Assembly: GCA_026770705.1 (NCBI GenBank)
Contig: JANJGN010000385.1
Coordinates: forward strand, 496,001 to 560,000
Direction: 5' to 3'
DNA length: 64,000 nucleotides
DNA from: Isurus oxyrinchus
Taxonomy: Eukaryota
In this document: positions 1 through 49,379 of the stretch, piece by piece
Position numbering within the stretch: position 1 is the stretch's first letter
Layout of the letters: each line of letters starts with the position of its first letter
Position numbers and translations under genes: made by a program
Notes under the pieces: model-generated
The model's input: only the letters and a program-made list of their open reading frames with translations
Database searches by the model: none
What the model was told of the DNA's origin: nothing

Positions 1-1283
1 GGAACTCGCTCCCACAGGGAGTGGTTGAGGTGAACAGTATCGATGTATTTAAGGGGCAGGAGGGTCGGTAACCAGAGGGACACAGATTGACGAACCGGAG
101 GGGGAGATGAGGAGAATTTGTTTTGACAGAGCGAGTTGTTGTGATCTGGAAGGTGCTGCCTGAAAGGGCAGTGGAAGCAGATTCAATAGGAACTTTCAAA
201 AGGGAAATTGGATAAACACTTGAAGGAAGAAGATGGGGGCAAAGTGGTGTGGTGGTTAGTGGATCTGATTGGATAGAACATTGAAAGACCTGGCACAGGC
301 TCAATGGGCTGAATGGCCTCCTCCTGTGCTGTACCATTCTCCGCTTCCATGATCTCTCCCCGAGTTAGTAACCACTCCAGATCCCTCTTGAAGGCAACAG
401 AGAGACAGCAACCACCACACCCACTGACAGCACATTCCCGAGGATCCCTACTCTCTGGGAAAAGATGAACTCTCCAACATCCAGCCTATTTTTGCTTCCT
501 GGAGAGTGTAAACCCTTCCCAGAGCGCGGATGAACCTTTCAATAAACTGTATTATCAAATCTACCATTTGATATATGTTAATTTTGATGACCTTACAGCA
601 TGTGTAGCAAATTGTGAAGTGAAGTTGGCTGAAAAGCTGGGAGGTGCAAGCTTAAGCACCACAGTGCCACCACTGGTGGGAGGATGTAAAGACAGTGTGA
701 CGTTTACATAGGATGCCCCCATTATAAACAGGGTCATTGGACATGATGGCAAAACTGAACACTGGAAAGGTGAGAAAAAGAAGTAAGCTCTTCACTAACA
801 GGAAATCCCTTCCTAAACTTCCTTATCTCTCCCTTTCTCTCAGATACACAAAAAATTTGACACAGGGCATGATAAGGAGGAGTTAGGGCAGGCAAGAGTT
901 CGGGATTAGGAAGCTTCTTAAAGGAGGAGAGAGAGACACGGAGAGGTGGGGAGTATCTGTTGGAATCTTTGTGCATGTGAGTTTCTGGAATAGACTTTGT
1001 AATTTGGATATTCTTCGATAAATATGAATGGGAACACATATCCCAGAATCCAGGAGAACTCTCCAGTGCAGTACTGAGGGAGGTCAGGTAACTCACAGGG
1101 AAGTGTGTACTACTGTGTTTGTGTGTGAGTGTGTCTTTCTGTGTGCTCATGAGTGTGGGATTGTGTGTGTGCATGCACTTTGGGTTTGTACATTTGTGAG
1201 TGCTTGTGTGTGTGTGTGCGTGGGAGAGCATCTGAGTATATGTGTTCGGAGATGAGAGAAATATTAAAGTCTGTGTAACTCAC

Positions 1284-1565
1284 ATTCCACAGTGATGGTT
1301 ATGAATCCCTCCACTGCTCCATGTTCATTCTCTGCCACACACTGATATTCTCCAGTATCCCTGGATGTAACGTGAGGAATCACCAACCACAGCTCATTGT
1401 TGGAACTTGTTCTGTTCATTGGGACATTAAGATGTCGCCACATCAGGTTAGAAGCTGGGGAGCTCTCGACAGAGCAGATTATCACTGCAGAATTCCACTC
1501 AATTATACTGATTGATGAAGCGTTAATCATATCTGGAGAAGTAATTGAGAGATTCCGTGGTGCGT
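1284..1565 (-). CDS. Siglec-like unit A, third Ig (I/C2-set) exon
   Basis: AG/GT-bounded 282-nt phase 1/1 exon reading YAPRNLSI...CSVESSPASNLMW...DTGEYQCVAENEHG...ITVE. The TM exon of this unit is expected just left of the window. Confidence 0.88.
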
Positions 1566-1704
1566 CTAAAAACAAATACAGATCAGTTAACTTAGACTGA
1601 CTGTGAAGCACTTTGAAAGACACTGAGAATGTGAAAGGTGTGATGTCAATGTAGGTTCTTTCACCACATAGCCCGTAATCCAGGCAGACACTTCAGTTCA
1701 GTAT

Positions 1705-2105
1705 TGAGGGCGTGCTGCACTGTCAGAGGGTCAGTACTGAGGGAGTGCTGCACTGTCAGAGAGTCAGTACTGAGGGAGTGCTGCACTGTCAGAGGGTCAG
1801 TACTGAGGGAGTGCTGCACTGTCAGAGAGTCAGTACTGAGGGAGTGCTGCACTGCCAGAGGTTCAGTACTGAGGAAGTGCTGCATTGTCAGAGGGTCAGT
1901 CCTGAGGGAGTGCTGCACTGTAGGAGGGACAGTACTGTGGGAGCACTGCACTGTAGGAGGGTTACTGCTGAGGTAAAACTGCACAGTCAGAGCGTCAGTT
2001 CTGATTGACCAGTGCAATGTTGGAGGAGCACTACTGAGGGATCATTACACTATTAGAGAGACAGTAATGAGGGAGTGCTGCACTGTAGAAGGGTCAGTGC
2101 TGAGG
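1705..2105. repeat. 33-bp minisatellite (SINE-derived)
   Basis: Unit agtactgagggagtgctgcactgtcagagggtc. Confidence 0.9.
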
Positions 2106-2369
2106 AGGCAAACACGCTGTTATGTGTGTACTATAGGCCTCCTGTGATAATGTGGAGTGCCAGGTACCTTTAAGAGAATACAAGTGGATAAACCATGTGA
2201 CAGTACTGACCAATCACTGGACAGTGTGGGCCACTGGTTAACTGTAAGTCTAGAGCTGGAGGTGGCTGTGGGAGCAGGCAAGGATTTAGTGCTCTGCCCT
2301 CTGTTACAATAAATAATCAGCTTGTTCTAATGTCGGTCTCTCTTGGTTATTGATAGCGAGCATCAGCTA

Positions 2370-2580
2370 AGAATAACTCAACAGGTCTGGCAGCATCGGG
2401 GGAGAAGAAAAGAGTTGATGTTTCGAGTCCTCATGACCCTTTGACAGAACTGAGGTCATGAGGACTCGAAACGTCAACACTTTTCTTCTCCGCCGATGCT
2501 GCCAGACCTGCTGAGTTTTTCCAGGTAATTCTGTTTTTGTTTTGGATTTCCAGCATCCGCAGTTTTTTTGTTTTTATCAA
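2370..2580. mobile_element. Palindromic short element (Penelope-tail-like)
   Basis: Long inverted repeat caggtctggcagcatc...gatgctgccagacctg; related copies at 21305-21520 and 47890-47985. Confidence 0.55.
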
Positions 2581-2659
2581 CTAACAAGTGTATATGAAGG
2601 AGTGCAATTCGAGTTTACTCAACCAGTGAACTCATAGACTCAAGATATAAAACCAACAA

Positions 2660-4365
2660 ACAGTCAGGGAGAGATGGACAATCCAACATGTGATCACATT
2701 TCAGAGATGTGTAAGAATAATAAAGCAGTAATACTCAGGGATTTTAACTACCCAAATATTAACTGGGACAGCTTTAGTGAGCAAGGTAGGGAGGGAGAAA
2801 AATTCTGAAGTTGCATCCAGGAGAAGATTTTTAGCCTGTGCATAGAAAGCTCAACAAGGGAGGGGACAGTTCTGGACCTAATATATGGAAAAGCGCCGGG
2901 GAAGGTGGAAAGCGTATCAGTAGGGGAGATAGTGACTGTAACTCAATTGGATTTAGGACAGTTATGGAGAAGGATAAGTTTGGGCTGGGAATAAAAATTC
3001 TAAACTGGGGAAAGGCTAATTTTACTAAGATGAGATATGATTTGGCCCAAGTGGACTGGGAGAAGCTCTTTGCAGATAAAACTGTGTCAGAGCAGTGGGA
3101 GGCATTCAAGGAGGGAATAGCGAGAGTACAGAGCAGATATCTTCCTGTAAAGACAAAGAGGGAGACCAAGTCTGGAGAACCCTGGAAGACAAGGAACATA
3201 AAGGTTTAGATTTAGAAAAAAGAGAAGCTTATGGCAGATACTGAGGGCTCAATACAGCAGAGTCCCTAGAGGAGTATAAATAGTGCAGATGGGAACTGAA
3301 AAAGTACATTAGGAAAGATAAGAGAGTGCATGAGAAAGCACTGGTGAGTAGAATAAAGCAAAACCCAGAGGGGTTTTTTAAATATGTAAAGAGCAGCAGA
3401 ATAATTCGGGAAAGAGTGGGGCTGATTAGGGACCATCGAGGTAATGTGTGTGTGGACCTGGAAGACGTGGGTACAGTCCTCAATGAATACTTTGCATCAG
3501 TCTTCACAATGGAAAAGGATGATGCAGGTATAACATCAGGGTGGAGGGCAGTGAAATATGAGAGGAAATTAACACAGAGAGAGGAGGTACTAGTGGGTTT
3601 AGCGACCTGAAAAGTGGATAAATCCACAAGCCCCGATGAGATGAATCCAAAGCTGTTGAGGGAGGAAAGGGAAGAGATATCAGGGGCCCTGGCAGTAATT
3701 TTCAAATCCTCTCTGGCCACAGGTGAGGTGCCAGAGGACTGGAGGATGGCTAATGTTGTCCCATTATTAAAAAAGGGAGGAAGGGATAGATCAGGAAATT
3801 ACAGGCCAGTCAGTCTAACCTCGGTGGTGGGGAAGTTACTAGTAAGAATTCTGAAGGACAGAATGAATCTGCACTGGGAGAGACAAGGATTAATCTGGGA
3901 TATTCAGCATGGATTTGTTAAGGGAAGGTCATGTTTGACAAACCTGATCAAATCTTTTGAGGAAGTCACCAGGAGTGTTGATGAGAGTAATGCCTTTGAT
4001 GTGGTCGACATGGGCTGAGGAAGGCTTTTGATAAGGTGCCTCTTGGCAGAGAGGCCAAGAAAGTAAGAGCCCATGGGATCCAAGGCAAAGTGGCACGTTG
4101 GATCCAATATTGGCTGAGGCAGGAAGCAGAGGGTGATGGTGGAGGGATGTTTCTGTGACTGGATGTCTGTTTCCAGTGGGGTTCCACAGGGCAAAGTGCT
4201 GGGGCACTTGCTGTTTGTGGTGTATATAAATGAATTGGACTTATATAAAGGGGAAATGATCACGACGCAAATGGAATTCAACCTGGAAAAATATGAGGTG
4301 ATGCACTTGGGGAGGGAGTTGCTGACCAGCATGGACATGATGGGCTAAATGGCCTCCTTCTGTCT
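2660..4365 (+). mobile_element. CR1 LINE ORF2 fragment (decayed)
   Basis: EDWRMANVVPLLKKG..NYRPVSLTSVVGKLL..QHGFVKGRSCLTNL..SGVPQG with stops and frameshifts, followed by a CR1 3' tail. Confidence 0.92.
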
Positions 4366-4559
4366 ATGTGTCTATGAGTCTATGAGTCCATGATGCACTA
4401 TCGGAGAGTCAGTAGTAAGGATGTACTGCCTGTCAGGGCTCACTTTTTACCAGTTAAATACCAATGGTTTGTTTATAAACAAAGTGCAGTATGTGGGAGC
4501 TTGCTGTGCACATTTGATACTATTCCAACTAATGTAGATTGAAGGGTGTTTGTACTTAC

Positions 4560-4856
4560 ATAGCACAGTCAGTACGAGGGTCCGCTTCGATGAAACAGAT
4601 GGATATCTCACTCTGCAGCTGAGATTGTGTCCGTGGTGTTTGAGTGATGGGATCAGGGTCAGAACAGAAGTATAGGTCAGAGTGACACCATGCTGAGTTA
4701 CAGTGTTTGAGACTGATCCAGGTACGTCAGTGGGAGTGTCCCAGGTTAAGACAGGTGCTGCTGTTCCATTGCACGTTGTGTTGAAGGTGCAGCTTACATC
4801 CACACGCTTTCCTGCAATAATTTCAGCAGGGAATATCGTGGGTTTATCTGTGAAAT
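4560..4856 (-). CDS. Siglec-like unit A, C2-set exon
   Basis: 297 nt reading DFTDKPTIFPAEIIAGKRVDVSCTFNTTCNG...W...SVLTLIP...LSCRV. The canonical acceptor reads TG here (AG in paralogs); an in-frame AG lies 9 nt downstream (exon start 4847). Confidence 0.85.
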
Positions 4857-6172
4857 CAAACACACAGAGAATGGATCCTTTTAGAGAAATATAACGTGAA
4901 GCATCAGTTCAAATAGAAACCACAGTCCCACACGAGAAAGCACTTTTAAAAGGAAGATATCAGAACTGAGAGGTTACAATGATCATTAAAGAATTGTCTA
5001 TTTTTACACTTGTTGAATCTCTGTCACTCAGATTAATACACTCTCACTCAGTGACCCTTGATTTGACCAGACTGGGTGAGGGTGGAGGAACAGCTCACAG
5101 CTCGGGGAGAACAGACTCAGCATTTGGAAAAGGATATGGAGACACTGGAGAGGGTGGTAAAAAGCTTCACAAGGATGATCTCCGCAATGTGAGGCTTTAC
5201 CTATCAGGAGAGGATGAACAGGCTGGGTCTCTGTTCTCTTGAACAGAGAAGGTTGAAGGGGTGACCTCATTTGACCTTTGAAGTAATGAAAGGTTTTGAT
5301 CGAGTAGACATGGAGAGAGTGTTTCCACTCCTCACAATGAACAAAACCAGAGGCTGACAATATAAGATCCTCACTAATAAATCCAATGGGGAATTCAGGA
5401 GAAACTTCTTTAACCAGAGAGTGGGGCGAATGTGTGCTTCAAGAATCACTTCATTGGCTGTGAATTGATTTAGGATCGTCCTGAGGTGTTGAAAGGCGCT
5501 ATGGAAATGCGAGACTTGCTTTTGTATTTTGAAAGCAGGTTTCCAAGGATGAGATGGGAACTGAGAGGTAACAACAATCAGCAGCAACTTTCCTATTTTC
5601 AAACTTGGTGGGGAATGTGTCACTGAGCTGAATACACTTTCACTCCCAGACCCTTGACTTGACAACACTGGGGTGTGGGTGATGGAGCAGCCCACAGCTC
5701 ATGGAACCCTGGCTCATCATTCTCTCAGAGATCTGGGTCACTGATCCCATTGCTCTCTGTGGGAGCTTCCTGTGTACAAACTCACTGCCACGTTAGACAG
5801 TGACTATACTTCAAGAATTTCTTCATTGTCTGTGAAATGATTTGAAGTTTGCTGAGGTGGTGTAAGGCGCTATAGGAATGCACATCCTTCTTTTGTCAAA
5901 TTGTTAGACATTTAAAAAGCATTAGGTAGACTGATGGGAGTGGATAACCTGATAACATTGATGGACACAGTCAATACATTTAATCATTGATATTAAAGTG
6001 AGTATTAGAGGTTGCTTTAGGACTGAACTGGAAGCTATCACCCAGTTATTGAGAATCAGACAGTGTGTTATAATAACCTGTGTTTTGTGTTAATATGTAA
6101 ACGTCACAGTTTGTGTTATTTCCCATTGAGTGTTGGATGTGAATTGGTGAGTAATTATAACACAGCACTTAA

Positions 6173-6541
6173 CAGAAACGTGAAGCTGGGTTACAGGGTA
6201 ATAGTTATGGCTCGGACCATTGTCAAATTCTATTCTGAAATAATAAGGTCCCGCATCTTCCCGTCTGATGTTGTTTATAATCAGGGAACAGTCGCCATCT
6301 TTCAGGTCTCCAGACAGCCGGGTCCGATGGTGGAACCGTGGTAACTCGTGACTGTGATCCTTGGAGTGAAAGGCAATGGGAGGCCAGGGAATCTGTTTCT
6401 CATTATTAAACCAGAGTCCGACTTGTCGTTTGTTTTCAAAATATGCTGGATAACTGTAGTGACACCGAATCTGTACACACGAACCTTCCTGCGCTGTCAC
6501 CTCTCGTGGAGTGTCACCTTTCCACTCTTGTGACAGTCCAA
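6173..6541 (-). CDS. Siglec-like unit A, V-set exon
   Basis: VGLSQEWKG...SCVQIRC...GDCSL...YYFRIE: Siglec Cys pattern, no F-strand Cys, essential Arg retained. The donor reads TTAAGT rather than GTAAGT. Confidence 0.88.
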
Positions 6542-7434
6542 CTGGGAAGAGAAATATCAATATTTAACCCTGGATCCTCATTGTCTAAGGAATCTCTTTG
6601 GATCCTCATTGTCTAAGGGATTATTTCTGATCCAAACCCCATATTGTTGTATTGTTGATTCCGATGCAGCATTGTAGACTGACTTGTCCCCAAGCTCAGC
6701 ACTGACCCTACTCCAGCAGACACTGTGAAACACACTAACAAAGTGCCTCTAGCCTGAGCTCTGAATGTGTCGAGAGAAAGACAAATATACAAACTGAATA
6801 TTGACACCTTTACACACGGACAGCTTTACCTTTCTTCTCTCTTTCAGTTATCTTGCTCCCTTATTGAAGTATCTAGCAAGGTGAGAATGGACAGGAAGTG
6901 TGACACTGAACAGCCTGTCTATTCTAGGAGCTGCTGTGTTGTCTTCATGGGAAATTCTGTCTAAAATCAGCAAAAGACACTAATTTCAGGCCATTGCTGT
7001 CAGAGTCCTAGCCACAAGATAGACTTCATCCCCTGAATTTTGTGTCCGATTTTCTACTCAAACATTCACCTCCGCACACACCCACCCCGACCCCACAAGT
7101 CACTCGCTGACCTACACTGGCTCCCAGTCCAGCAACACCTCGATGTGATTATTTTCACACTTGATTTCCAATCCCTCCATCACTCCGCTCCACTCCCTGT
7201 CTCTATAACCTCCTCCAAACCTACAACCCTCTGTGATCTCTGCACTCCTCCAATTCTGCTGTCAGACAGGGAGTCAGTGTATATCAGTGAGCACAGGGGT
7301 GATGGGTGAATGGGACTTGGTGTGAGTTTGTACACTGGATCACTGCTGAATCGGTTGCCTATCAGAGCTCAATAAGAATGATCTTTTACGAAGACTATTA
7401 ACCATAAATCTATCTGAGCTGACGATAATATTAC

Positions 7435-7474
7435 CTTGGAGAAGTGACAGGAGGCAGTAATATTTCCCGATCAT
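7435..7474 (-). CDS. Unit A leader (signal peptide) exon
   Basis: ATG..MIGKYYCLLSLLQ-G|GTAA, 40 nt, phase 1; joins the V exon as ...LLQVGLSQEW. Confidence 0.85.
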
Positions 7475-11503: not shown

Positions 11504-11643
11504 TCAAACAGTCTGTCGACTTCCTTTCACTGTTTGTCTCTCCCAGACACAGACTCCAGCGATAGTGATAACCACAGCCACAAGGAATATCACAGCTCGT
11601 ATTCCCAGGATCAGGATCACGTGCAGAATCTCTCCTCCACTGT
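11504..11643 (-). CDS. Unit B transmembrane/short-tail terminal exon (Arg in TM)
   Basis: Acceptor ttctctAG, phase 1: xSGGEILHVILILGIRAVIFLVAVVITIAGVCVWERQTVKGSRQTV*. AATAAA at 10434-10429. The ORF track shows only the wrong frame. Confidence 0.87.
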
Positions 11644-14024
11644 CTAGAGAACACACAGAAAGAAATCATCACTGACTCTCCGCTTTCAATCTCTCACTCT
11701 GGCTGAACAATCAAGCTTCATATCACTGCAACATTTGCTGTAATATTGACCCATCCACTGGGATTCAATGTGGAATGAATGTTTTCATTGTAAACACTCT
11801 AAGAGTGGACAATCGGAACTTTCCCCTTAGCGTGGAACATTGGTGAGAATGGATCATTGTGCTGTTGGACTCCCTGTCCAATGTTTCTCTCTATTGCTGT
11901 GTACAGGATTGTGCCGTAGAAAATTCTGGAAACGTTTAGTGCCGGGTGGAAATCCATCTCGGACATGTGTGCGTATCAGGCAGGATCGAGATGGACTCCC
12001 CCACGGACTTACACCCCCCGCTTAATAAACAGTTCCAATCTTTACCCAGAGAGAGGGGAGAATGTGGAACTCACTCCCATAGGGATTGGTTGAGGTGAAC
12101 AGGATCGATGTATTTAAGGGGCAGGAGGGTCGGTAACCAGAGGGACACAGATTGACGAACCGGAGGGGGAGATGAGGAGAATTTGTTTTGACAGAGCGAG
12201 TTGTTGTGATCTGGAAGGTGCTGCCTGAAAGGGCGGTGGAAGCAGATTCAATAGGAACTTTCAAAAGTGGAATTGTATAAACACTTGAAGGAGGAAGATG
12301 GGGGCAAAGTGGAGTGGTGGTTAGTGGATCTGATGGGATAGAACATTGAAAAACCTGGCACAGGCACCATGGGCTGAATGGCCTCTTCCTGTGCTGTACC
12401 ATTCTCCGCTTCCATGATCTCTCCCCCAGTCAGTAACCACTCCAGATCCCTCTTGAAGTTGACAGAGAAACAGCAACCACCACACCCACTGACAGCACAT
12501 TCCCGAGGATCACTACTCTCTGGGAAAAGATGAACTCCCCAACATCCAGCCTATTCCTGCTTCCCAGAGAGTGTAAACCCTTCAGGGAGGCGCTGAGGAA
12601 GTTTTCAATAAAATGACATCAAATCCACCGTTTGAGAAATAATTGAATTCCGATGAACTCACAGCTTGTGGAGCAAACTGGGAAGTAGAGTTGCTTGGAA
12701 AGCTGGGAAACACAAGGATTAAGGGCTACAATGCCACCACTGATGGGAGGCTGTAACTGCAGCGTGACGTTTACATAGGCAGTCATCATTATAAACAGGG
12801 GCATTGGACATAATGGGAATTATGTGCACGGAAATAGTGAGAACATTATTTAAGCTTTTCACCAGCAGGAATTCTCTTCCTAAACCTCTCCAACTCTCTC
12901 TTACTCTCAGATACACAAAGAAAATCACACAGAATCAGATAAGGAAGAGTTGGGTTGGTGATTCGTCAAAGGGTTAGGTTTCAGGAAGCTTCTTAAAAGG
13001 AGAGAGAGAGTTGGAGACGCAGAGAGTATCTGTGAGTGCCTCTATGCATCTGAGTGTCTGTAATAGTAATTTCCATATTCTTCCATAAATATGAATGGGA
13101 ACACAAATCCCAGAATTCAGGCCAACTCTCCAGTGCAGTACTGAGGGAGTACTGACATTCCAACTGGGGAGAGAAATATCAATATTTAACTCTGGATGGT
13201 TTGTAGATCCAATAGACTCGATATCCACCCCCTCCATCACTGGGGCACAGTGGCTGCAGTGTGGACCATCTACAGGACACACAAGGATCTCCCCAAGGTT
13301 TCACAATGGATGGAAGAGAATCCTGGTCACAGGAGTGGACAAGTTCATTCTACATTGGCTCATGGTCCTCAGGACCCTGTTTAGTGAAGCCAGTCTTCCA
13401 CCCAACACAGTGTCTACAAGATACACAGGGAAACTGTGTAAATATCTCATCTCTCTACACCGACTGGTTTGTCTTCGGTTTAACTTTCAGTTATTTTACT
13501 TCCTTATTGTGGTTGCTATGGTGAAACTGTGCAGGAAGTGCGAGGGCTGGACTCTCTGTCTATTCTGACTGCAGCTGTGATGTGGTCGTGGTGATTCTCA
13601 GTAAAATGAAACCCTCTGAGCTCCCCCATCCCCAAGGTTTAGGGAGTGAATTCCAGAGCTCAGGCCCCAGGCAGCTGAAGGCCCGGCCGCCAGTATTGGA
13701 GTGATGGGAATCGGGGGATGGTCAAGAGGCCGGAATTGGAGTAACACAGAGATCTGGGACTTTGGTTGGGAGAGTTGCAGGAGCTTACAGAGATGAGGAG
13801 GCAGTGTGAGGCAATGGATGCATTTGAACAAAGAGATGTGACTTTTAAGTTTGAGATGTTGTAGGACCAGGAGACAGATAGTTTAGGGGTGATGGGTGAA
13901 TGGGACTTGGTGTGAGCTTGTACACTGGCTCACTGCTGAATCGGTTCCCAATAACAGCTCAATAAGAATGATCTTTTACAAAGGCTATTAACCATAAATC
14001 TGTCCGAGCTGACGATGATATTAC

Positions 14025-14064
14025 CTTGGAGAAGTGACAGGAGGAAGTAAGATTTTCCAATCAT
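14025..14064 (-). CDS. Unit B leader exon
   Basis: MIGKSYFLLSLLQ-G|GTAA, intact; promoter block at 14518-14660. Confidence 0.75.
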
Positions 14065-14517
14065 TATCCACTCCCAGATATTTCATCAGCTTCTCACTCT
14101 GAAACTCTGAAAGGGAAAGGAGTTAATGAGACCTCACCTCTTGTCCAACAGCTCTCGAGAGATCAGAACTGCTTTTAGACAATGTCTTCACAGAATAATT
14201 CACAGAATAATCATCCCTGTGGGATGATAGGTGTTCTGCAGAGAGTTACAAGGCTTTAAGAATGAAAAACATCAAAGGACTTGCATTTCTATAGCACTTT
14301 TCACCACATCAGGACACCCCAAAGTATCTACAGTTCCCTCATCCCTTGAGCTAGAAAGATGTTCTGTACAACAGACTTGAGTCTCACACCCAGATCTCAA
14401 TAATCAGTGGAAATCTTTCAAAGGCATCAATCATTGGAATCTGTCTTCATAAAGTCACAACATCAACAAAGGACGGTGTTGGTGGTGGAAGTGAATTCCA
14501 ATCGTTCCGTTACTTAC

Positions 14518-14660
14518 CCAGGACCTGTCCGACTGCTCGCCTGGGGAGGAACTGCCCACACGCTCTGCTTGGGCTGAATGACCTCTTCCTGTGCTGCTCC
14601 CTCTGTGTGTTTAATGAGAAAGGGTGGATGTGTCACTTTGAGACAAAATGAGGAAGTTGG
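14518..14660 (-). promoter_or_regulatory. Unit B promoter / non-coding first exon
   Basis: AAAATGAGGAAGT PU.1-like box at ~14645-14657 and GTAAGT donor; paralogous to 7924-8065. Confidence 0.5.
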
Positions 14661-14894
14661 TTCAAAGTGACAGAGCAGCTCATGTTTTGAGATGTTGGTG
14701 AACTGTTAATCCTTTGTGTCCTGACCCTGTGTTGATATTTCTGCTCACAGGTGCACAGTCATTGACCAGGAGTTTCTCCTGTGGGTCAGTGGGTTTCACA
14801 CCCGAACTCAGGGAGTCAGTATGTTTTAGAATTTTGTGGGGTTCAAGACCCCATTCAGCAGATGCCTGCCCCACAGAGTAGACTGAAATTCCCC

Positions 14895-15400
14895 AGTGTC
14901 AGTACTGAGGGAGTGCTGCACTGTCAGTGGGTCAGTACTGAGGGAGTGCTACACTGTCAGAGGAACAGTACTGAGGGAGTGCAGCACTGTCGGAGGGTCA
15001 GTACTGAGGGAGTGCTACACTGTCAGAGGGACAGTACTGAGGGAGTGCTGCACTGTCAGAGGGACAGTATCGAGGGAGTGCTAATCTGTCGGAGAGACAG
15101 TTTTGAGGGAGTGTTGCACTGTCAGAGGGACAGTACTGAGGAATTGTTGCGCTGTTGGAGGGTCAGTACTGATGGAGTGCTGCACTGTCGGTGGGACAGT
15201 CCTCAGGGAGTGCCGCACTGTCGGAGGGTCAGTACTGAGGGAGTGTTGTACTGTTGGAGGTTCAGTACTGAAAGTGCGCTGCACTGTCGGAGGGTCAGTA
15301 CTGAGGGAGTGTTGTACTGTCAGAGGTTCAGTATTGAGTGAGTGCTGCACTGTCAGAGGGTCAGTACTGAGGGAGTGCTGCACTGTCAGGGGGTGAGTAC
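14895..15400. repeat. 33-bp minisatellite
   Basis: Same unit, at the junction of units B and C. Confidence 0.9.
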
Positions 15401-15611
15401 ATTGAGATTCCTGCTCTGCTCTATCAGCCCCTTGGCTGGACATAAAAGCCGCTGTGTTAATGTTCAGAAACGGTTATTAATTGTATTCTGGTCACCATTT
15501 TCCCTCAAAGACAGATTATCTGATTGTCATCAGAATACCTTTCTATGGGATCCTGCTGAGCGTAATCTTGACTGTTCCAGCGAATGTAGAATGAAGGATG
15601 TCCATACTTAC

Positions 15612-15908
15612 ATTGCACAGTTAGTACGAGGGTCCGCTCCGATGAAACAGATGGATATCTCACTCTGCAGCTGAGAGTGTGTCCGTGGTGTTTGAGTGAT
15701 GGGATCAGGGTCAGAACAGAAGTATAGGTCAGAGTGACACCATGCTGAGTTACAGTGTTTGAGACTGATCCACGTACGTCAGTGGGAGTGTCCCAGGTTA
15801 AGACAGGTGCTGCTGTTCCATTGCACGTTGTGTCGAAGGTGCAGCTTACATCCACAGGCTTTCCTGCAATAATTTCAGCAGGGAATATCATGGGTTTATC
15901 TGTGAAAT
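15612..15908 (-). pseudogene. Unit C C2-set exon (open, but part of an inactivated gene)
   Basis: 297 nt, AG/GT intact, near-identical to the other C2 exons. Downstream Ig3/TM exons are missing before the unit B promoter. Confidence 0.8.
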
Positions 15909-16151
15909 CTAACACACAGAGAATGGATCCTTTTAGAGAAATATAACGTGAAGCATCAGTTCAAATAGAAATCACAGCCCTAAGATTAGAGATAGATGGG
16001 AGTGGATGACCTGATAACATTGATGGACACAGTCAATACATTTAATCATTGATATTAAAGTGAGTTTTATAAGTTGCTTTAGGACTGAACGGATGCTATC
16101 ACCCGGTTATTGAGAATCAGACTCTGCGTTATACTAAACTGTGTTTTATGT

Positions 16152-17196
16152 TGTGATGAAACTATGATATTTTTCAGAATAATATTGTCGGCTTATGGGA
16201 ATGAATGTAGATGGTTCCGTCTGCGGGTCTGATTTAATTGAATTCGAGTCAGATCAACTGTGAGGTTAAAACTATCAATAGAGTTTGGTGCAAAGCAGAC
16301 TTCTGAAATGGGGATGGACAAGCTAGGATGAGGGTTCCACAGAAAAGCTGTAAATGAAATTTTAGATCAGTAAAGAGAATGTTTGATTGTCAAAGGGTAG
16401 TTGGGTGTTTATAATTAACAAGATAACCAGGGCAAGGTTATTATGTGTATTCTTCCCAAAAGGAATGGGCCATATTGACAACATGAAAGATTTTTATACT
16501 ATGGGAAAAGTGTATTTCCCAAGACAGGTGCAACAATGGGATTTTATACATTGGAGAGAGAGAAACCAACATAAAGAAGGATGGAATGTTATGTGGGAGG
16601 GGGACATGAATTTCTTGAAAGGTACAGTAGGTGAAGACAGGTGCTGCTGTTCCATTGCACGTTGTGTTGAAGGTGCAGCTTACATCTACACGCTTGCCTG
16701 CAATAATTTCAGCAGGGAATATCGTGGGTTGATCTGTGAAATCTAACAGACAGGGAATGGATCCTTTTAGGTAAAACGTTTCTGTTCACTTTTGCTGCTC
16801 CAGTGCTTATAGGTGTGTTAAAAGACTTTGGAATTACACTGTCAAGTGGGTGCTGCAGTAACCTTGCCGGATTCCCATTTCCATTTAAGATTTATTGGGA
16901 TTGTTGCCTTCAAGGGGGTGTGTAGTTGGAAATTAGGTTAATGAGAAATTTTGGAATTTGTTCTAATATCAAGTAACTGTAATCTTCTGTATGTGTTTGA
17001 ATGTTTCTTCTTTTGTTAATACATTTCTTAATATAATTTTAAAATATCTAAAGGTGTTAGTGGACTCAATTCTTATGCATTCACATCATAAGCCTTCTCT
17101 CAACAAATGTAAATGGCAAAACCTTTGTGGTAGCTTGGCCAAGTTCCCTTTGTGGATTCTCTCCACCTGGCACACATCACCTGCCATGTCATAACA
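16152..17196. mobile_element. Solo LTR inserted in the unit C V-C2 intron
   Basis: Termini TGTGATGA...TCATAACA, imperfect 4-bp TSD atgt/gtgt; absent from the paralogous intron of unit A. Confidence 0.7.
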
Positions 17197-17281
17197 GTGT
17201 TATTATGTAAACGTCAGAGTTTGTGTTCATTCCCATTGAGTGTTGAATGTGAATGTTGAGTAATTATAACACCGCACATAC

Positions 17282-17647
17282 CAGAAACTTGAAGCTGGGT
17301 TACAGGGTAATAGTTATGGCTTGGACCATTGTCAAATTTTATTCTGAAAAAATAAGGTCCTGCATCTTCCCATCTGATGTTGTTTATAATCAGTGAACAG
17401 TCACCATCTTTCAGGTCTCCAGACAGCCGGGTCCGATGCCGGAACAGTGGTAACTCGTGACTGTGATCCTTGGAGTGAAAGGCTATAAAGAATCTTATCA
17501 GGACTTTGTCATTAAACCAGATTCCAATTTGTGGTTGGTTTTCCAGACACGATGGATAACTGTAATGACATGGAATCTGTACACACGAATATTCCTGCGC
17601 TGTCACCTCTCATGGAGTGTCACCTTTCCACTCTTGTGACAGTCCAA
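17282..17647 (-). pseudogene. Unit C V-set exon with premature stop
   Basis: Siglec V exon in which CGA became TGA at 17612-17610. Confidence 0.88.
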
Positions 17648-18743
17648 CTGGGGAGAGAAATATCAATATTTAACTCTGGATGGTTTGTAGATCCACTAGA
17701 CTCGATATCCACCCCCTCCATCACTGGGGCACAGTGGCTGCAGTGTGGACCATCTACAGGACACACAGGGATCTCCCCAATGTATCACAATGGATAGAAG
17801 AGAATCCTGGACACAGGAGTGGACAAGTTCATTCTACATTGGCTCATAGTCCTCAGGACCCTGTTTAGTGAAGCCAGTCTTCCACCCAACACAGTGTCTA
17901 CAAGATACACAGGGAAACTGTGTAAATATCTTATCTCTCTACACTGACGGTTTACCTTTCAGTTAATTCATTTCATTATGGTGAAACTGTGCAAGAAGTG
18001 TGAGGGCTGGACCCTCTGTCTATTCTGAATGCTGCTGTGATGTAATCATGGCCTCTCAGGGAATGGACTATTGGAGTTAATTCATCCCTGAATTTTGATT
18101 TTGAATTCCAGAGCTCGGGGCCCAGGCAGCTGAAGGCACGGCCGCCAATAATGGAATGATGGGAATCGGGGGATGGTCAAGATGCTGGAATTGGAGGAGT
18201 GCAGAGATCTCGGAGGGTTGTAGGTACTGGAGGAGATTACAGAAATAGGGAGGGTTGTAATGGTGGACGAGGTTACAGAGAAAGGGAGGTTTGTAGGGGC
18301 TGGAGAAATTAACAGAGATAGCGAAGGATATAGGGGCTGGAGTTGGTTAAAGAGTTAGGGAGAGTGGTAGGGGCTGGAGGAGGTTACTGAGATAGGGAGG
18401 ATTGTAGGAGCAGGGCAAGGTTACAGAGGTAGGGAGTAATATATGTGCTGGAAGATGTTACAGAGATAGGGAGGTTGGTATGGGCTGGAGGAGGTAACAT
18501 GGATAGGGAGAGTTGCAAAATTTTGGAGGGATTTCTACAGGATGACCTGGATTTTAATTTTCTGTTGCTGTCAGACAGGGAGTCAGTGAATATCAGTGAT
18601 CACAGGGGTGATGGGTGAATGGGACTTGGTGTGAGTTTGTACACTGGCTCACTGCTGAATCGGTTCCCAATCACAGCTCAATAAGAATGATCTTTTACAA
18701 AGACTATTAACCATAAATCTGTCCGAGCTGACGATGATATTAG

Positions 18744-18775
18744 CTTGGAGAACTGACAGGAGGAAGTAAGATCAT
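18744..18775 (-). pseudogene. Unit C leader exon (frameshifted, donor lost)
   Basis: 32 nt versus 40 nt in paralogs (8-nt deletion); donor GT changed to CT. Confidence 0.8.
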
Positions 18776-18894
18776 TGTCCATTCCCAGATATTTCATCAG
18801 CTTCTCACTCTCAAGCTGTGAAAGAGAAAGGAGTTAATGAGACCTCACCTCTTGTCCGACAGCTCTCCAGAGATCAGAACTGCTTTTAGACAAT

Positions 18895-19532
18895 GGGCAG
18901 AGTTTCGCTGTCGGTGAGCAGGGGGCAGGGGTGCAGTGAATTCAGCTGAGGGCCCGCCGACCTGTCAATGGCCAATTGAAGCCATTGACAGGAACATTTA
19001 AACAATGAACCGACCTGCCGGTCCAACCTTAAGGCTGGTGGGCAGGGCAGGAGCTCCAGCGACAACTAGAGAAAACATAAAACCTCATCCACCGGCGGGA
19101 CGAGGATTCATGTCGGTTTTAAAAGAGTTTATTAAAGTTTTGGTGCAGTTTATTAACATGTCCCATCTTGAGTGACACTGTCACGTGAGGGGGACATGTT
19201 GAGGATTTTTTTATTTTTCTATTTTGATTGTTTGAAAACCTTTCAGCGATCTCCCTGAGGCAGCACTTAGCCTCAGGGTGATGTGGGCTTTATCATGCGC
19301 ATGTGTGACAGAGCGCACTCTCGCATTTGGGGAATGTCCCCACCACCCACCCCCCACCCCCGGCCCACACAGGAAGGGCATAGCGCTTCCCGCTGGACAT
19401 CACGCTGGGTGGGCCTTAATTGGCACGCCCACTTAAAATGGCGGCGGGGCCCGCTTCTCCGGTGGGGATTGGCTCCCCGCCCGCTGGAGATTGGGTCAGG
19501 CCCACCCGCTCGACAGGCTGGAAATTCAGCCC
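18895..19532. mobile_element. PIF/Harbinger-type MITE
   Basis: TIRs GGGCAGAGTTTC / GAAATTCAGCCC and a 3-bp TSD AAT; interrupts sequence that is continuous in units A, B and D. Confidence 0.75.
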
Positions 19533-27368: not shown

Positions 27369-27408
27369 ATGATCGGGAAATCCTACTTCCTCCTGTCACT
27401 TCTCCAAG
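27369..27408 (+). CDS. Unit D leader exon
   Basis: ATG 27369, MIGKSYFLLSLLQ-G|GTAA, phase 1, intact. Confidence 0.87.
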
Positions 27409-35137: not shown

Positions 35138-35512
35138 TTGGACTATCACAAGTGTGGAAAGGTGACACTCCAGGAGAGGTGACAGCGCAGGAAGGTTCGT
35201 GTGTACAGATTCCATGTAATTACAGTTATCCATCATATTTAGTAGCGAGATCACCAGTCGGAATCTGGTATATGAGAAGGAATTGGGAAAAATGGAATGA
35301 ACGGTCTATAGCCTTTCACTCCAAGGATCATAATCGCGAGTTACCACAGTTCCACCATCGGACCCAGTTGTCTGGAGACCTGAAAGATGGCGACTGTTCC
35401 CTGATTATAAACAACATCAGACGGGAAGATGCAGGATATTATTTATTCAGCCTAGAATTTGACAACAGGAATAGATACAACGACCGTCCTGAAACCCAGC
35501 TTCACGTTTCTG
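35138..35512 (+). CDS. Unit D V-set exon V1 (divergent, essential Arg absent)
   Basis: 375 nt, AG/GT intact and open; YLFSLE where paralogs have YFFRIE. Confidence 0.88.
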
Positions 35513-38915: not shown

Positions 38916-39284
38916 TTGGACTGTCACAAGAGTGGAAAGGTGACACTCCACGAGAGGTGACAGCTCAGGAAGGTTCGTGTGTACAGATTCCATGTCATTA
39001 CAGTTATCCATCGTGTCTGGAAAACCAACCGCGAGGTGGAGTCTGGTTTAATAATGAGAAACAGATTCCCTGGGCTCCCATTGCCTTTCACTCCAAGGAT
39101 CACAGTCACGAGTTACCACGGTTCCGCCATCGGACCCGGCTGTCTGGAGACCTGAAAGATGGCGACTGTTCCCTGATTATAAACAACATCTGACGGGAAG
39201 ATGCAGGACCTTATTTTTTCAGAATAGAATTTGACAATGGTCCGAGCCATAACTATTACCCTGTAACCCAGCTTCACGTTTCTG
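38916..39284 (+). pseudogene. Unit D V-set exon V2 with nonsense codon
   Basis: 369 nt, nearly identical to V3, but AGA became TGA at 39191-39193. Confidence 0.85.
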
Positions 39285-41220: not shown

Positions 41221-41589
41221 TTGGACTGTCACAAGAGTGGAAAGGTGACACTCCACGAGAGGTGACAGCTCAGGAAGGTTCGTGTGTACAGATTCCATGT
41301 CATTACAGTTATCCATCGTGTCTGGAAAACCAACCGCGAGGTGGAGTCTGGTTTAATAATGAGAAACAGATTCCCTGGGCTCCCATTGCCTTTCACTCCA
41401 AGGATCACAGTCACGAGTTACCACGGTTCCACCATCGGACCCGGCTGTCTGGAGACCTGAAAGATGGCGACTGTTCCCTGATTATAAACAACATCAGACG
41501 GGAAGATGCAGGACCTTATTTTTTCAGAATAGAATTTGACAATGGTCCGAGCCATAACTATTACCCTGTAACCCAGCTTCACGTTTCTG
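41221..41589 (+). CDS. Unit D V-set exon V3
   Basis: 369 nt, open, AG/GT intact, YFFRIE Arg retained. Confidence 0.88.
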
Positions 41590-43520: not shown

Positions 43521-43886
43521 CTGAACCCTCACAAGAGTGGAAAGGTGACACTCCACGAGAGGTGACAGTGCAGGAAGGTTCCTGTGTACAGATTCCATGT
43601 CATTATAGTTATCCATCATGTCTGGAAAACCAACCGCGACGTGGAGTCTGGCTTAATAATGAGGAATGGAGAACATCGTCTATAGCCTTTCACTCCAAGG
43701 ATCACAGTCACGAGTTACCACGGTTCCACCATCGGACCCGGCTGTCTGGAGACCTGAAAGATGGCGACTGTTCCCTGATTATAAACAACATCACATGGGA
43801 AGATGCAGGACCTTATTTTTTCAGAATAGAATTTGACAATGGTCCGAGCCATAACTATTACCCTGTAACCCAGGTTCACGTTTCTG
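43521..43886 (+). CDS. Unit D V-set exon V4
   Basis: 366 nt, open, AG/GT intact, Arg retained, distinct C-C' loop WLNNEEWRTSS. Confidence 0.88.
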
Positions 43887-44614
43887 GTAAGTGCTGTGTT
43901 ATAATTACTCAACAATTCACATTCAACACTCAATGGGAAACAACACAAACTGTGACGTTTACATATTAACACAAAACACAGCTTATTATAACACACTGTC
44001 TGATTCTCAATAACCTGGTGATAGCTTCCAGTTCACTCCTAAAGCAACCTCTTATACTCACTTTAATATCAATGATTAAATGTATTGACTGTGTCCATCA
44101 ATGTTATCAGGTTATCCACTCCCATCGATCTCTCTAATCCTGTCTCGAAGTCTGACTTAGCGACAGAAGAAAGATTCACATTTCTGTAGCACTTTTCACC
44201 ACCTCAGCATGGACCAAATCACTTCACAGCCAATGAGCTGATTCCTGAATTTTAGTTACTATTGTAATGTGGGAAACACAGCAACCAATTTGCGCACAGC
44301 AAGCTCCCACAAATTGCAAAGTAAAAAATGGCCTAGATCGCTGAGGGACTGATGGGTTAGTGCACTCCAAACTCTGGTCTGCTCCACCACCCTCACCCAC
44401 TATTATCAGTTCAAGTGTCTCGGAGTGAACGTGTATTAAGCTGAGAGACAGAAACACCAAAGTCTCAAAGCAGGAAATTCTCTCCTAATCATTGTAACCT
44501 CTCAGATCTGATATCATCCTTGTAAAAGTGCTTTTTCTTGTGGGACTGTGATTTCTATTTGAACTGATGCTTCACGTTATATTTCTCTAAAAGGATCCAT
44601 TCTCTGTCTGTTAG

Positions 44615-44911
44615 ATTTCACAGATAAACCCATGATATTCCCTGCTGAAATTATTGCAGGAAAGCGTGTGGATGTAAGCTGCACCTTCAACACAACGTGC
44701 AATGGAACAGCAGCACCTGTCTTAACCTGGGACACTCCCACTGACGTACCTGTATCAGTCTCAAACACTGTAACTCAGCATGGTGTCACTCTGACCTATA
44801 CTTCTGTTCTGACCCTGATCCCATCACTCAAACACCACAGACACAATCTCAGCTGCAGAGTGAGATATCCATCTGTTTCATCGGAGCGGACCCTCGTACT
44901 AACTATGCAAG
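44615..44911 (+). CDS. Unit D C2-set exon
   Basis: 297 nt, phase 1/1, ttAG...G|GTAAGT, with the Siglec domain-2 extra Cys (CTFNTTC). Confidence 0.9.
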
Positions 44912-45232
44912 GTAAGTACGGACACCCTTCATTCTACATCAGCACTCCCTCAGCGCTGACCCTCTGACAGTGCAGCCCGTTCTCAGTGTCCACATTCTCA
45001 TGCCTCTCAAAGTGCTTCACAGTCGATAGAAGTTAACTGATCTTTATTTGATTGTTGCTGAATGAAGAGACAAGCTGTCTAAACTTTGCATCTCACACAC
45101 ATTATTTTCCATGGCAACACCTCCTCCAATCAGAGACCACTTGCTGATTAACCAGCACTCTCTTCCCTTTAAATATAAATTGTTGTTCACTTTCTGTTGG
45201 TAAACCTGCAATCTGTCTTGTTGAGTCCAGTC

Positions 45233-45387
45233 CTGACATCTGAATATCACAATGAACAGAACAAGTTCCAACAATGAGCTGTGGTTGGTGATTCCTCACG
45301 TTACATCCAGGGACACTGGAGACTATCAGTGTGCTCAGAGAATGAACATGGAGCAGTGGAGGGGTTCATAACCATCACTGTGGAACG
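45233..45387 (+). pseudogene. Unit D third Ig exon remnant
   Basis: 3' half of the unit A Ig3 exon. The acceptor and 5' half are replaced by ~180 bp of foreign sequence (45051-45232), and there is a 1-nt deletion near YQC. Confidence 0.78.
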
Positions 45388-46500
45388 TTAGTTAAGACAA
45401 ACTTCAACATCTCTCTCAGATTGAAACACTACAAAAACACACATAAATATACAGCCTTAAATAGACACCTGCATACACACAATCCCACATCTATGAGCAC
45501 ACACAAAGACACACTCACAAACAAACACACTAGCACATACTCCCCTGTGGATTACCTGACCTCCCTCAGTGCTGCACCGGAGAGTTGACCTGGATTCTGG
45601 GATTTGTGTTCCCTTTCATATTTATGGAAGAATATGGAAATTGCAAAGTCTATTACAGACACTCAGATGCACAGAGATACTCACAGATACTCTCTGCCTC
45701 TCCAACTCTCTATCCTACTTTAAGAACCTTCCTGAAATCTAACTCTTTGACCAGTCACCAGTCCCAATTCCTCCTTACGTGATTTTGTGTGAAATTTTGT
45801 TTGAGTATCTGAGAGTAAGAGGGAAGTGGAGAGGTTTAGGAAGGGAATTCCTGTTGCTGAAAAGCTTACATCAAGTTCTCAGCTTTCCAGTGCCCATTTT
45901 TCACATGATGTCCATGTTCATAATGGGGATTGCCTATGTAAACATCACGCTGTAGTTACACTCTCCCACCAGTGGTAGCACGGTAACACTTAACCCTTGC
46001 ATCTCCAAGTTTTTCAAGCAATTTCACTTCCTAATTTCCTACTATTCACCTCAACCATTCCCTGTGGGAGCGAGTTCCATATTCTCCCCTCTCTCTGGGT
46101 AAAGATTGGAACTGTTTATTAAGCGGGGGGTGTAAGTCCGTGGGGGAGTCCATCCCGATACTGCCCGATTCGCACACACGGCTGAGATGGATTTTCACCC
46201 GGCACTAAAGGTTTCCAGAATTTTCTACAGCACAATCCTGTACACAGCGATGGAGAGAAACATTGGACAGGGAGTCCAACAGCACAATGATCCATTCTCA
46301 CCAATGTTCCACGCTAAGGAGAAAGTTCCGATTGTCCACTCTTAGAGTGTTTACAATGAAAACATTCATTCCACATTGAATCCCAGTGGATGGGTCAATA
46401 TTACAGCAAATGTTGCAGTGATATGAAGCTTGATTGTTCAGCCAGAGTGAGAGATTGAAAGCGGAGAGTCAGTGATGATTTCTTTCTGTGTGTTCTCTAG

Positions 46501-46640
46501 ACAGTGGAGGAGAGATTCTGCACGTGATCCTGATCCTGGGAATACGAGCTGTGATATTCCTTGTGGCTGTGGTTATCACTATCACTGGAGTCTGTGTCTG
46601 GGAGAGACAAACAGTGAAAGGAAGTCGACAGACTGTTTGA
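46501..46640 (+). CDS. Unit D transmembrane/short-tail terminal exon (Arg in TM)
   Basis: ttctctAG| then (D)SGGEILHVILILGIRAVIFLVAVVITITGVCVWERQTVKGSRQTV* (TGA 46638-46640); AATAAA at 47024-47029. Confidence 0.88.
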
Positions 46641-47371
46641 AGCTTTGTACAGCAACAATCTGGTCAGTCAGTGCGGACAAATAACGTGTGATGTTGTGTT
46701 AAGTTGTAATGAAACTGGTCAGTGTCCTGGTTATAATCATCTCCGTATCATCGAGTCATTCCAGCAATGGAGGAGGAATTTGGCCCATTGAGTCTATGCT
46801 GTCTCTCTGTAAAGGAATCCACTCAGTCCCATCCCCTGCTCTATCCCCGTATCCCTGCAAATTTATTTCCAAGTGTCCGTCCAATTTCCTTTTGAAATTG
46901 TTCATCGAATAGGAATGAACAGAAATGTGACGTTGCTAAACTCTGTTCTCTGATTGGAATGTGCTTTCTGAATGCTGCACCTTTTTCATGCTGCGATAGA
47001 TTGTAAGAAGCATTTGGCTTATGAATAAAATTACATTGATTAACTCAAGTGATTAAAATGCTCAGCCTGTTCTGTAGATATTTAAAGATTAAAATTCTTG
47101 TTTTGCTGCAAAATACTTGGCTCAAAGACATAGCTTCCTGTTGTCACGTTTTCCAATCAGATGAATTCCTCTGTCCATCTTTATAATAGAAATTTCCAAT
47201 GTAAACATGTCACATTGTAACTGCACACTCTTGCCAGTGGGTGGTGTGATACCAAAGCTGTCTTGCTGCAGAGAAACAGCGAGAAATATTCCTGTTGTGT
47301 GCATGAACTTCATGTTAGCATGAGACACAGGCATCAGATGAAATTTTGTGCTATTTGTACAATGTTCTTTA

Positions 47372-47890
47372 GACAGTGCAGCACTCCCTCAGATCAGACC
47401 CTCCGACAATGCAGCACTCCCTCAGTTCAAACCCTCTGACAGTGCAGCACTCCCTCAGTTCAGACCCTCCGACTGTGCAGCACTCCCTCAGTTCAAACCC
47501 TCCGACAGTGCAGCACTCCCTCAGTTCAGAACCTCCGACAGTGCAGCACTCCCTCAGTTCAGACCCTCTGACAGTGCAGCACTCTCTCAGTTCAGACCCT
47601 CTGACAGTGCAGCACTTTCTCAGTTCAGACCCTCTGACAGTGGGGCACTCCCTCATTTCAGACCCTCCGACAGTGCAGCACTCCCTCAGTTCAGACCCTC
47701 CGACAGTGCAGCACTCCTTCAGTTCAGACCCTCCGACAGTGCAGCACTCCCTCAGTTCAAACCATCCGACAGTGCAGCACTTCCTCAGTTCAAGCCCTCC
47801 GACAGTGTAGCTCTCCCTCAGTTCATACCCTCCGACAGTGCAGCACTCCCTCAGTACTGAACCTCCGACAGTGCCGCACTACCTCAGTAC
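47372..47890. repeat. 33-bp minisatellite
   Basis: gacagtgcagcactccctcagttcagaccctcc copies 3' of unit D. Confidence 0.92.
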
Positions 47891-49379
47891 TTCTCCGCCG
47901 ATGCTGCCAGACCTGCTGAGTTTTTCCATGTATTTCTGTTTCTGTTTCTGTTTTGAATTTCCAGCATCTGCAGTTTTTTTGCTTTTAGTGCTGGGCAGTT
48001 CCTCAGCAAGGATTCGGGCCACAAAACATTGCGAGTGCTGTGGGTCTGCGCCACGATTTAGAGAGCTGTGCTTGGCACGCCTATTCTAGTCCCAGTCCAG
48101 TGTGGTGGGGAGAGTCTGGCAGTCCTGGGTTGGTCGTGCCCAGCATGGTGTGCAGGACGTGGTCAGTCCCTCACACACGTCCATCCTGGGGGTGGGTGTC
48201 TTGATACTAGGCCGCAGGTGGCACAATCCCAGTCAGGGGAGGCATCTGCAGCCTGTCAGTGGGGAGCAGGTAATATAGAGAGTAGGGGTGGGGGTGGGAA
48301 TCGAGGGGGGCCGGTGGTCTCTGTAAGTCACAGTACAATGGGCCTCTAGTTGGAGAGAGGTCAGGTCTACATGGGGCATTGGGATGTCAACATCAGACAG
48401 TCTAGGGAGGAGGACTGGGATGTCAACCCCGAACACAATAAGATCAAGGATTAAAGAGGAAGGGAGGAGACTGATTGGAAGGAGGGGAATGTGCACATTA
48501 TGCTCCTCCAGCACGATGGGAGGGACTGTGATGGTTACGGGGGTGGGGGGGGGTGGTGACGTGTGAGGGGATAGACGCTTACCTGGTGGTATTGCCTCAG
48601 CCTCACCCTTTTTCAAGCTGATCCAATGTCGCAGTTGAAGAATAAGCTACAAAACAAATTGGCAGGGGAGGTCTCCCAGGGCCTGTGGGAGACATCACCC
48701 ACTGCATCTTCGGCCTGTTTGAAGGGGCACCCGAACAATTCCGGCTTTTCCAAATGATGAGGAAGACACAGCTGCACCCCGAGTCCCCTACTGGGGATCC
48801 AGAAGGTTGCAATAGCGCTGCGAGGGACTCATGGGCTCCACAGTGACTCCCTAATTAGCAACTGGAAGGTTTATGTTCATTTATCTTTATTATCCGTTCA
48901 TATTGAGCTCCTGATTTGTCACCTTACTGTACCTCGTCCAATGCTTCTGTTATCAGGACTTCCACATCGATGTGAAAGAGCCATGATGATAGCAGACAGT
49001 CGCACAATGGGAATGGCACTAGGCCAGTGATCCAGAGGCCCAGGTGAATGCTTTGAAGGCACGGGTTCAAATCCCACCACGGCAGCTGGAGGAATTTCAG
49101 TTCGATTAATCAATAAATTTAATTGATTGATACATTTTTTTCTTATTCATTTCAGGGATGTTGGTGTCGCTGGCTAGGCCAGTATTTGTTGCCCATCCCC
49201 AATTGCCTTTGAGAACATCTGGATATCTGAGTTAGGATCAGGAGTAGGTCACTCAGTCCCTCGAACCTGCTCTGCCATTCAGTAAGATCATGGCTGATCT
49301 GATTGTCACCTCAACCTCAGATTCCTGCCTACCCCCAATGACCTTTCACCCCCTTGTTAATCAAGAATCTATCTAGCTC

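Follow-up and report, generated by a model that had tools for sequence, protein, structure and literature searches.

An arginine-bearing transmembrane exon ends Siglec-type genes in a large shark array and may couple them to an FcRgamma-type adaptor

The exon at 46501..46640 on the plus strand of the window, a 64,000-nucleotide stretch of Isurus oxyrinchus DNA, is confirmed as the terminal exon of a Siglec-type gene, and it encodes a transmembrane (TM) helix that contains an arginine. By analogy with known receptors, this Arg probably recruits a dimer of FcRgamma or zeta, and the receptor would then activate on sialylated ligands or their mimics. All of the gene lies on the plus strand. It begins with a leader (signal peptide) exon (27369..27408; MIGKSYFLLSLLQ) in phase 1 with a GT donor, which is followed by four V-set exons. 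V1 (35138..35512) is an open exon of the distal type, with Ser in place of the essential Arg (YYLFSLEF) and without the extra BC-loop Cys; V2 (38916..39284) has an in-frame TGA at 39191-39193; V3 (41221..41589) is an open Siglec V-set exon with both the essential Arg (YFFRIE) and the extra BC-loop Cys; and V4 (43521..43886), the open proximal exon, also has the essential Arg. The C2-set exon (44615..44911) corresponds to Siglec domain 2 and includes an extra Cys that aligns to CD33, and the remnant of a third Ig exon (45235..45388) is frameshifted and has lost its 5′ half and acceptor. The TM exon itself follows an AG acceptor after a polypyrimidine tract, with the Arg codon CGA at 46545-46547 and the stop at 46638-46640, and the 3′ UTR (46641..47093) has polyadenylation hexamers at 47024, 47052 and 47088.

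The leader-V-C2-TM exon junctions are all in phase 1 and in frame. With every V exon spliced in, the reading frame meets a single internal stop; omission of V2 gives an ORF of 528 residues. Because of the V2 stop, this single copy may be non-functional, the two outcomes being about equally probable; function would require the skipping of V2, failing which the gene would count among the damaged copies, roughly half of the total. A TGA at this V2 codon is found in 2 of 76 V exons sampled, and a paralogue that is 98.5% identical over 23.6 kb has all four V exons open.

The peptide of the TM exon, (D)SGGEILHVILILGIRAVIFLVAVVITITGVCVWERQTVKGSRQTV-stop, ends in a tail of 12 residues after the Trp (ERQTVKGSRQTV) that has 0 Tyr and no ITIM, and the RNA-type contigs give no sign of an alternative tail exon. 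Scored with hydropathy scale values, the best hydrophobic windows of 19 to 21 residues start at residues 6-10 of the 46-residue peptide, and the Arg lies inside every top-scoring window. The two top 19-residue windows (starts 9-10) place it 7th-8th in the helix and a start at residue 6 places it at position 11, the hydrophobic stretch being 29 residues long and the depth of the Arg approximate. After the Arg come 18 apolar residues and then a Glu. The original prediction of an intramembrane Arg in the N-terminal half of the TM, with a Tyr-free tail of 12 residues, is thus borne out by the translation and by the hydrophobic windows, which put the Arg in the upper half of the helix. A 24-mer across the Arg codon has 217 exact matches in the genome (control, 0), and 222 when the codon is left free, so that CGA is kept in 217 of 222 Arg-type TM exons; among the 5 that differ, two listed copies (G000:C52:737260 and 3200485) have CAA (Gln). 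This conservation is weak evidence for function, since the whole exon is 99-100% identical among copies and broken genes retain the Arg too.

The ectodomain is of the Siglec type. The gene has Pfam matches to V-set, Ig_CD22 and C2-set_2 (V3 to V-set and Ig_CD22), and the 17 best PDB matches of V3 are to Siglec-5, -8, -7, -10, CD33, MAG and sialoadhesin. The YFFRIE motif aligns on the essential Arg with YFFRVE of Siglec-5 and YFFRME of CD33; of the exons compared, V3 and V4 have this residue and V1 has Ser. The layout is that of a type I protein with an N-terminal V-set domain, a C2-set domain and one TM. The Siglec cysteine pattern includes an inter-domain pair from V to C2, and the V and C2 cysteines of the homologue P0035 align, at the level of sequence, with those of CD33. 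These features uphold the earlier description of a Siglec-like receptor, and NCBI names for these shark proteins are already Siglec-like. We infer that the V domains bind sialylated glycans or microbial mimics of them.

A white-shark homologue with the V-C2-TM layout scores 97 bits against CD33 in PDB, 89.6 against MAG, 44.8 against Siglec-15 and 42.7 against CD22, which makes CD33 the best PDB match for the shark V-C2 unit, narrowly ahead of MAG. The CD33-related Siglecs also have an ITIM followed by a TxYxxI motif, as do the sister genes in the shark. Teleost-based work describes fish as lacking inhibitory CD33-related Siglecs, with sharks unmentioned in the part cited here (PMC7226832). In a quick tree of 51 V-C2 rows (1 of 52 was skipped), which holds no verified MAG, CD22 or Siglec-15, the shark-ray family forms one clade (SH-aLRT 98) that stands apart from the bony-vertebrate CD33-like rows; branches are long, and the tree leaves the order of the fork with the CD33-like and MAG-like rows open. 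Siglec-15 resembles the shark gene in being activating, in its V-C2-TM layout and in its presence in fish, but it differs in its conserved TM Lys and its use of DAP10/12 (PMC7226832), where the shark exon has Arg. That the shark gene is Siglec-15 is ruled out by this Arg in place of Lys and by the score of 44.8 bits against 97 for CD33.

Assembled contigs of RNA type support the exon structure, with the proviso that they come from one sample, that their RNA status is a guess and that they are not assignable to one of more than 200 near-identical copies. In 3 of 4 runs (X1-X3, one sample) such contigs join 44909 to 46499 at GT..AG, that is, C2 to TM, and this joint skips the remnant of the third Ig exon. 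The V-to-C2 joint out of V4, also at GT..AG, is seen in contigs of X1-X3, one contig spans 46524-46814 and so runs through the stop, and the fourth run, X13, gave no exon joints. Loose ends include leader-to-V and V-to-V joins, and a wide variety of V loops is represented in the contigs, as are several exons further downstream. Among the joints listed for the RNA-type contigs, none leads from the third Ig exon to the Arg-TM exon and none leaves the coding sequence of the Arg-TM exon. Use of another TM exon, which would have spoken against the original prediction, was not seen for the Arg class, as C2 is joined straight to this exon. A loose-end motif behind the third Ig exon has 0 matches in the genome, and probably spans a junction or varies. 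A loose end before a GT in one contig points to a possible 3′ UTR splice at 46662, 22 bases past the stop, that would leave the protein unaltered.

The gene belongs to a large array. Beside the Arg-type exons there are two uncharged TM exons, with 185 and 104 exact genome matches, and a V-exon motif has at least 664 matches, a lower bound because it counts exact matches to a 19-mer. The 4.17-Mb contig C52 alone holds 155 TM exons (66, 57 and 32, by type). Of 28 genes in the first 600 kb of this contig, 15 look intact (Arg class 6/13, class A 5/9, class B 4/6), an intact paralogue lying at G000:C52:104213-123634, and 7 of the 13 whole Arg-class genes have defects; this check is crude, covering leader, frames and splice sites but not tails, counting a broken third Ig exon as skippable and leaving out one Arg exon cut by the 600-kb boundary. 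Copies are 92-98.7% identical over 6-24 kb, and among the 25 listed self-matches longer than 6 kb in the 600 kb of C52, 0 reach 99%. The order and spacing of TM exons on C52 (155) and in the first 2 Mb of C71 (69) agree over at most 4 consecutive genes, and a simple haplotype duplication between C52 and C71 is unsupported. Haplotype inflation of the copy count is nevertheless possible because the FcRgamma-type exon occurs on two small contigs. On a 19.9-Mb scaffold, three family V exons and one class B TM exon (L032-L037) lie at G000:C34:15.13-15.19 Mb, an outpost that may anchor the unplaced array contigs.

For comparison, humans are credited with 15 Siglecs and fish with four regular ones (PMC7226832), and mice with 9 Siglec genes (Siglec reviews). 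No paper on a shark Siglec expansion or on the Arg-TM exon was found in a search that did not extend to most subscription journals, and shark genome papers might include such counts in their tables of gene families. Paired Siglecs themselves are known; this shark departs from the Siglecs described so far in the size of its array and in an upper-helix Arg encoded by an exon that SLAM genes also use.

Class A, with an uncharged TM, provides the putative inhibitory sisters of the Arg class. The three classes are interleaved on C52, and both uncharged types share contigs with the Arg type. Tails of class A carry LLYANI-type and TEYAQI motifs, which are of the ITIM type. Class B, represented by 104 copies (on C52, e.g. 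54813-67350), combines an uncharged TM with a multi-Tyr tail bearing VYENC, LYANC and SVYGNL. C2 identity between Arg and class A genes (0.980) is close to that within the Arg class (0.983). A tree of 34 intact V exons accounts for the position label with 2 changes, where shuffled labels average 11.6; for the class label it needs 8, where shuffling averages 11.4 and 16 of 500 shuffles come out this low, so that slight clustering by class remains. On the tree of V-C2 rows from different species the Arg label is scattered, with 6 changes for 7 rows against a shuffled mean of 6.4. The ectodomains appear to be common to the signalling classes and to evolve in concert, as in paired Siglecs, and both conversion and exon shuffling fit the pattern of the trees by position and taxon.

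Position also governs the extra BC-loop Cys, which is present in 16 of 16 middle or proximal V exons, in 0 of 13 distal ones and in 1 of 5 solo ones. This distribution fits proteins with tandem V domains and, with the V-to-V loose ends, disfavours mutually exclusive splicing of the V exons. The V loops are about five times more divergent than the framework, at synonymous and non-synonymous sites alike. Positive selection on these loops was not found: pN/pS is 0.41-1.07, from crude pairwise counts on non-independent copies, and pS rises with pN.

Clusters of activating and inhibitory IgSF genes that evolve by birth and death, with many pseudogenes, are familiar from the chicken CHIR and the teleost NITR and LITR; these are not Siglecs, and they number from tens to a little over a hundred members, below the roughly 510 TM exons here. 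The closest parallels among Siglecs are the primate pairs 5/14 and 11/16, in each of which an activating gene is described as linked to an inhibitory one with a nearly identical V-set ectodomain; the activating gene encodes a short tail and a basic residue in the TM, as in the shark (PMC13358205, PMC6288428). In the same accounts gene conversion maintains the resemblance within a pair, null alleles are frequent for the activating gene, and activating Siglecs are read as counter-traps (PMC13358205, PMC6288428). Against these two primate pairs, the shark has hundreds of genes, three TM classes and one to four tandem V exons, and its Arg lies in the upper helix, the FcRgamma pattern, where the primate pairs use DAP12.

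The Arg-TM exon is not confined to Siglec-type genes. The segment 46205..46623 (plus strand), which takes in the end of the intron and the TM exon, is homologous to part of a gene of the SLAM family on G000:C21; the alignment (295 of 435 bases, E 1e-33) covers the TM exon and about 295 bases of upstream intron. Because it extends into the intron, it indicates a common origin of the Arg-TM exons of Siglec and SLAM genes, not convergence. The C21 exon, one of the 222 Arg-type matches, lies behind V and C2 exons of SLAM type, and SLAM V, C2 and this TM exon are joined in a single contig of depth 4.66, from X4, 1 of 4 runs; the SLAM label is taken from the database names of 5 homologues, and two V-like ORFs on C21 have no Pfam match. 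Catshark SLAM proteins have the same Arg-TM at their C-terminal end. In a SLAM-like protein of Heterodontus (P0107) the C-terminus corresponds to a wrong-frame translation of the exon (22 of 36 residues identical, E 5e-12), and the horn-shark SLAM gene probably carries the exon, either mis-framed in its annotation or frameshifted. In Chiloscyllium (P0110-P0113), the Arg-TM exon ends arrays of CD22-like C2 domains and also a different Siglec-like protein with tandem V domains.

All 101 homologues of V4 are chondrichthyan, and 7 of them end in the Arg-TM. A search with the exon gave 9 matches among 76 candidates and added the bamboo shark, for a total of 15 proteins, from four shark species and three orders, that end in the Arg-TM, with a 16th that has it internally. 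Siglec-like proteins bear the exon in Lamniformes, Carcharhiniformes and Orectolobiformes, and the three TM classes recur in other sharks. Rays, squalomorphs and bony vertebrates are unrepresented among these matches, which is weak evidence that they lack the exon; charged-TM matches from mammals have a central Lys in an unrelated TM sequence. The original prediction that activating receptors arose in this lineage does not stand if Isurus oxyrinchus alone was meant, since the exon is found on Siglecs of three shark orders and must predate this species. Its analogy with Siglec-14/15/16 serves for function and fails for descent, the known activating Siglecs being DAP12 partners (PMC13358205) and the mammalian ones among the matches having a central Lys.

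TM exons of candidate adaptors are present in the genome with the Asp kept, two of FcRgamma type (L045, L046) and one of zeta type (L044), types assigned from a Pfam match and the general features of the two chains. No ITAM exons of the FcRgamma-type gene were found within 20 kb. A complex prediction for two FcRgamma-type TM chains and the Arg-TM, made with alignments unused, gave a score of 0.15 and a mark of 0.34, values that speak neither for nor against the pairing. The model for the proposed coupling is CD89, in which an Arg close to the upper end of the TM makes the contact with FcRgamma, with NKp30 and NKp46 assumed to do likewise with zeta or gamma (PMC13107469). The ectodomains of CD89, NKp30 and NKp46 (RDD motif) are unrelated to those of the shark Siglecs, and the likeness is one of Arg placement, without a claim of homology between TM exons. 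In the proposed mechanism, the upper-helix Arg would pair with the two aspartates of an FcRgamma (or zeta) dimer, and the ITAM adaptor so recruited would bring about activation of Syk. The activating class would act against pathogens that bind to the inhibitory sisters, and conversion or shuffling would maintain the likeness of the ectodomains. We envisage the exon as a portable 'activating' module that may have moved between IgSF families, in either direction, early in galeomorph sharks, and that would be independent of the mammalian Lys/DAP12 Siglecs.

An activating receptor whose Arg couples instead to DAP12 or DAP10 seems unlikely to us. It has precedents, as DAP12 is the adaptor of every activating Siglec described in the reviews cited, including Siglec-14, -15 and -16 (PMC13358205, PMC6288428), and NKG2D uses an Arg with DAP10 (PMC13107469); the 29-residue hydrophobic stretch would also permit the Arg to sit at position 11. 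However, apart from NKG2D the partners of DxxxT/S adaptors use a central Lys (PMC13107469), the 7th-8th place of the Arg in the top 19-residue windows is higher in the helix, and the exon is unrelated to the Lys-bearing mammalian Siglec TMs found. A genome search for the DAP10 family, an insensitive one from which absence does not follow, returned a single weak match with an internal stop. Rather less probable is a location of the Arg at the outer interface of the membrane without an adaptor, in which case the proteins would not signal and would dilute the inhibitory sisters as decoys or adhesion molecules. The 18 apolar residues past the Arg could alone span the membrane, some homologues (P0024, P0029) have a Gln in the segment before the Arg, and the tail has few basic residues, all of which would suit such an arrangement; it sits poorly with the retention of GIRA/VIRA on Siglec, CD22-like and SLAM ectodomains in three shark orders while the flanks drift, and a basic TM residue with a short tail beside ITIM-bearing sisters is described as the standard activating design (PMC13358205).

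A further alternative concerns the array as a whole, which might be mostly runaway segmental duplication or uncollapsed haplotypes, with a few old functional genes and most copies as passengers; we consider this the most improbable of the three. The damage in about half of the sampled genes (15/28 clean), the 92-98.7% identity over 6-24 kb, the lack of visible positive selection and the FcRgamma-type exon on two small contigs are what such an origin would leave behind. Set against them are the 155 TM exons on a single contig, the match in order of at most 4 genes between C52 and C71, the 0 of 25 listed self-matches at 99%, intact genes in all three classes, varied V loops in RNA-type contigs and the recurrence of the three classes in other sharks. 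Coupling of the Arg to FcRgamma or zeta is the reading that we prefer.

More tentatively, the array can be read as a repertoire, encoded in the germline, of paired receptors of the Siglec type that number several hundred, in which exchangeable V heads with divergent loops are combined with C2 spacers and three signalling ends, and in which a portable Arg-TM exon, using FcRgamma and not DAP12, would have produced activating Siglecs independently for broad innate sensing of glycans and their mimics. If that is so, the repertoire would exceed the human Siglec set more than tenfold, and its approximately 220 Arg-type and 290 uncharged anchors would trace paired Siglec arrays to cartilaginous fish. 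It would further show repeated origins of activating Siglecs with the use of different adaptors, and the capacity of a single TM exon to convert unrelated IgSF families into activating receptors. The shark array would then offer a testable model for the birth of paired receptors and their upkeep in step.

Other members of the family lie in and beside the window. A second Arg-TM exon (11504..11643, minus strand) is identical to that at 46501-46640 in 139 of 140 bases, in agreement with the near-identity noted originally, and the single difference changes Thr to Ala. This exon ends a wrecked copy whose debris (13153..18895, minus strand) includes a damaged leader at 18.7 kb, a V exon with a stop (17639-17283), half a C2 exon (16743-16609), another C2 exon (15909-15616), a second leader at 14.0 kb and the acceptor stub of a V exon at about 13.15 kb. 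A third member (1282..7474, minus strand) has leader, V, C2 and an intact third Ig exon, and its Arg-TM exon lies just outside the window on the left (L001:9441-9576, minus strand). The latter has a frameshift below the Arg, also seen at C52:546022, that retains the hydrophobic helix and gives a longer, Tyr-free tail.

Scattered through the array is another, distantly related V type (L002:1836-2090 and L003, right of the window; C52:89340, 268954, 416167 and 584817), with about 30% identity to the family V and, in one copy, YYFYVDV at the Arg site; in two cases it is upstream of class B TM exons. The 5′ untranslated exon that precedes the leader (7880-7960, minus strand) and most other leaders resembles the class B tail exon (SAQAERVGSSSPGEQSDRSW), which suggests that one exon may serve as a promoter-side exon in some genes and as a tail exon in others. 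Minisatellite arrays of 33-bp and 37-bp units occupy 1698-2105, 8238-10094, 14895-15418 and 47372-47891, as well as 57217-58487 and 61159-61724, and tandem units of 2.3 kb (37314-44203) each contain one V exon. Both the minisatellites and the 2.3-kb units are likely substrates for change in the number of V exons.
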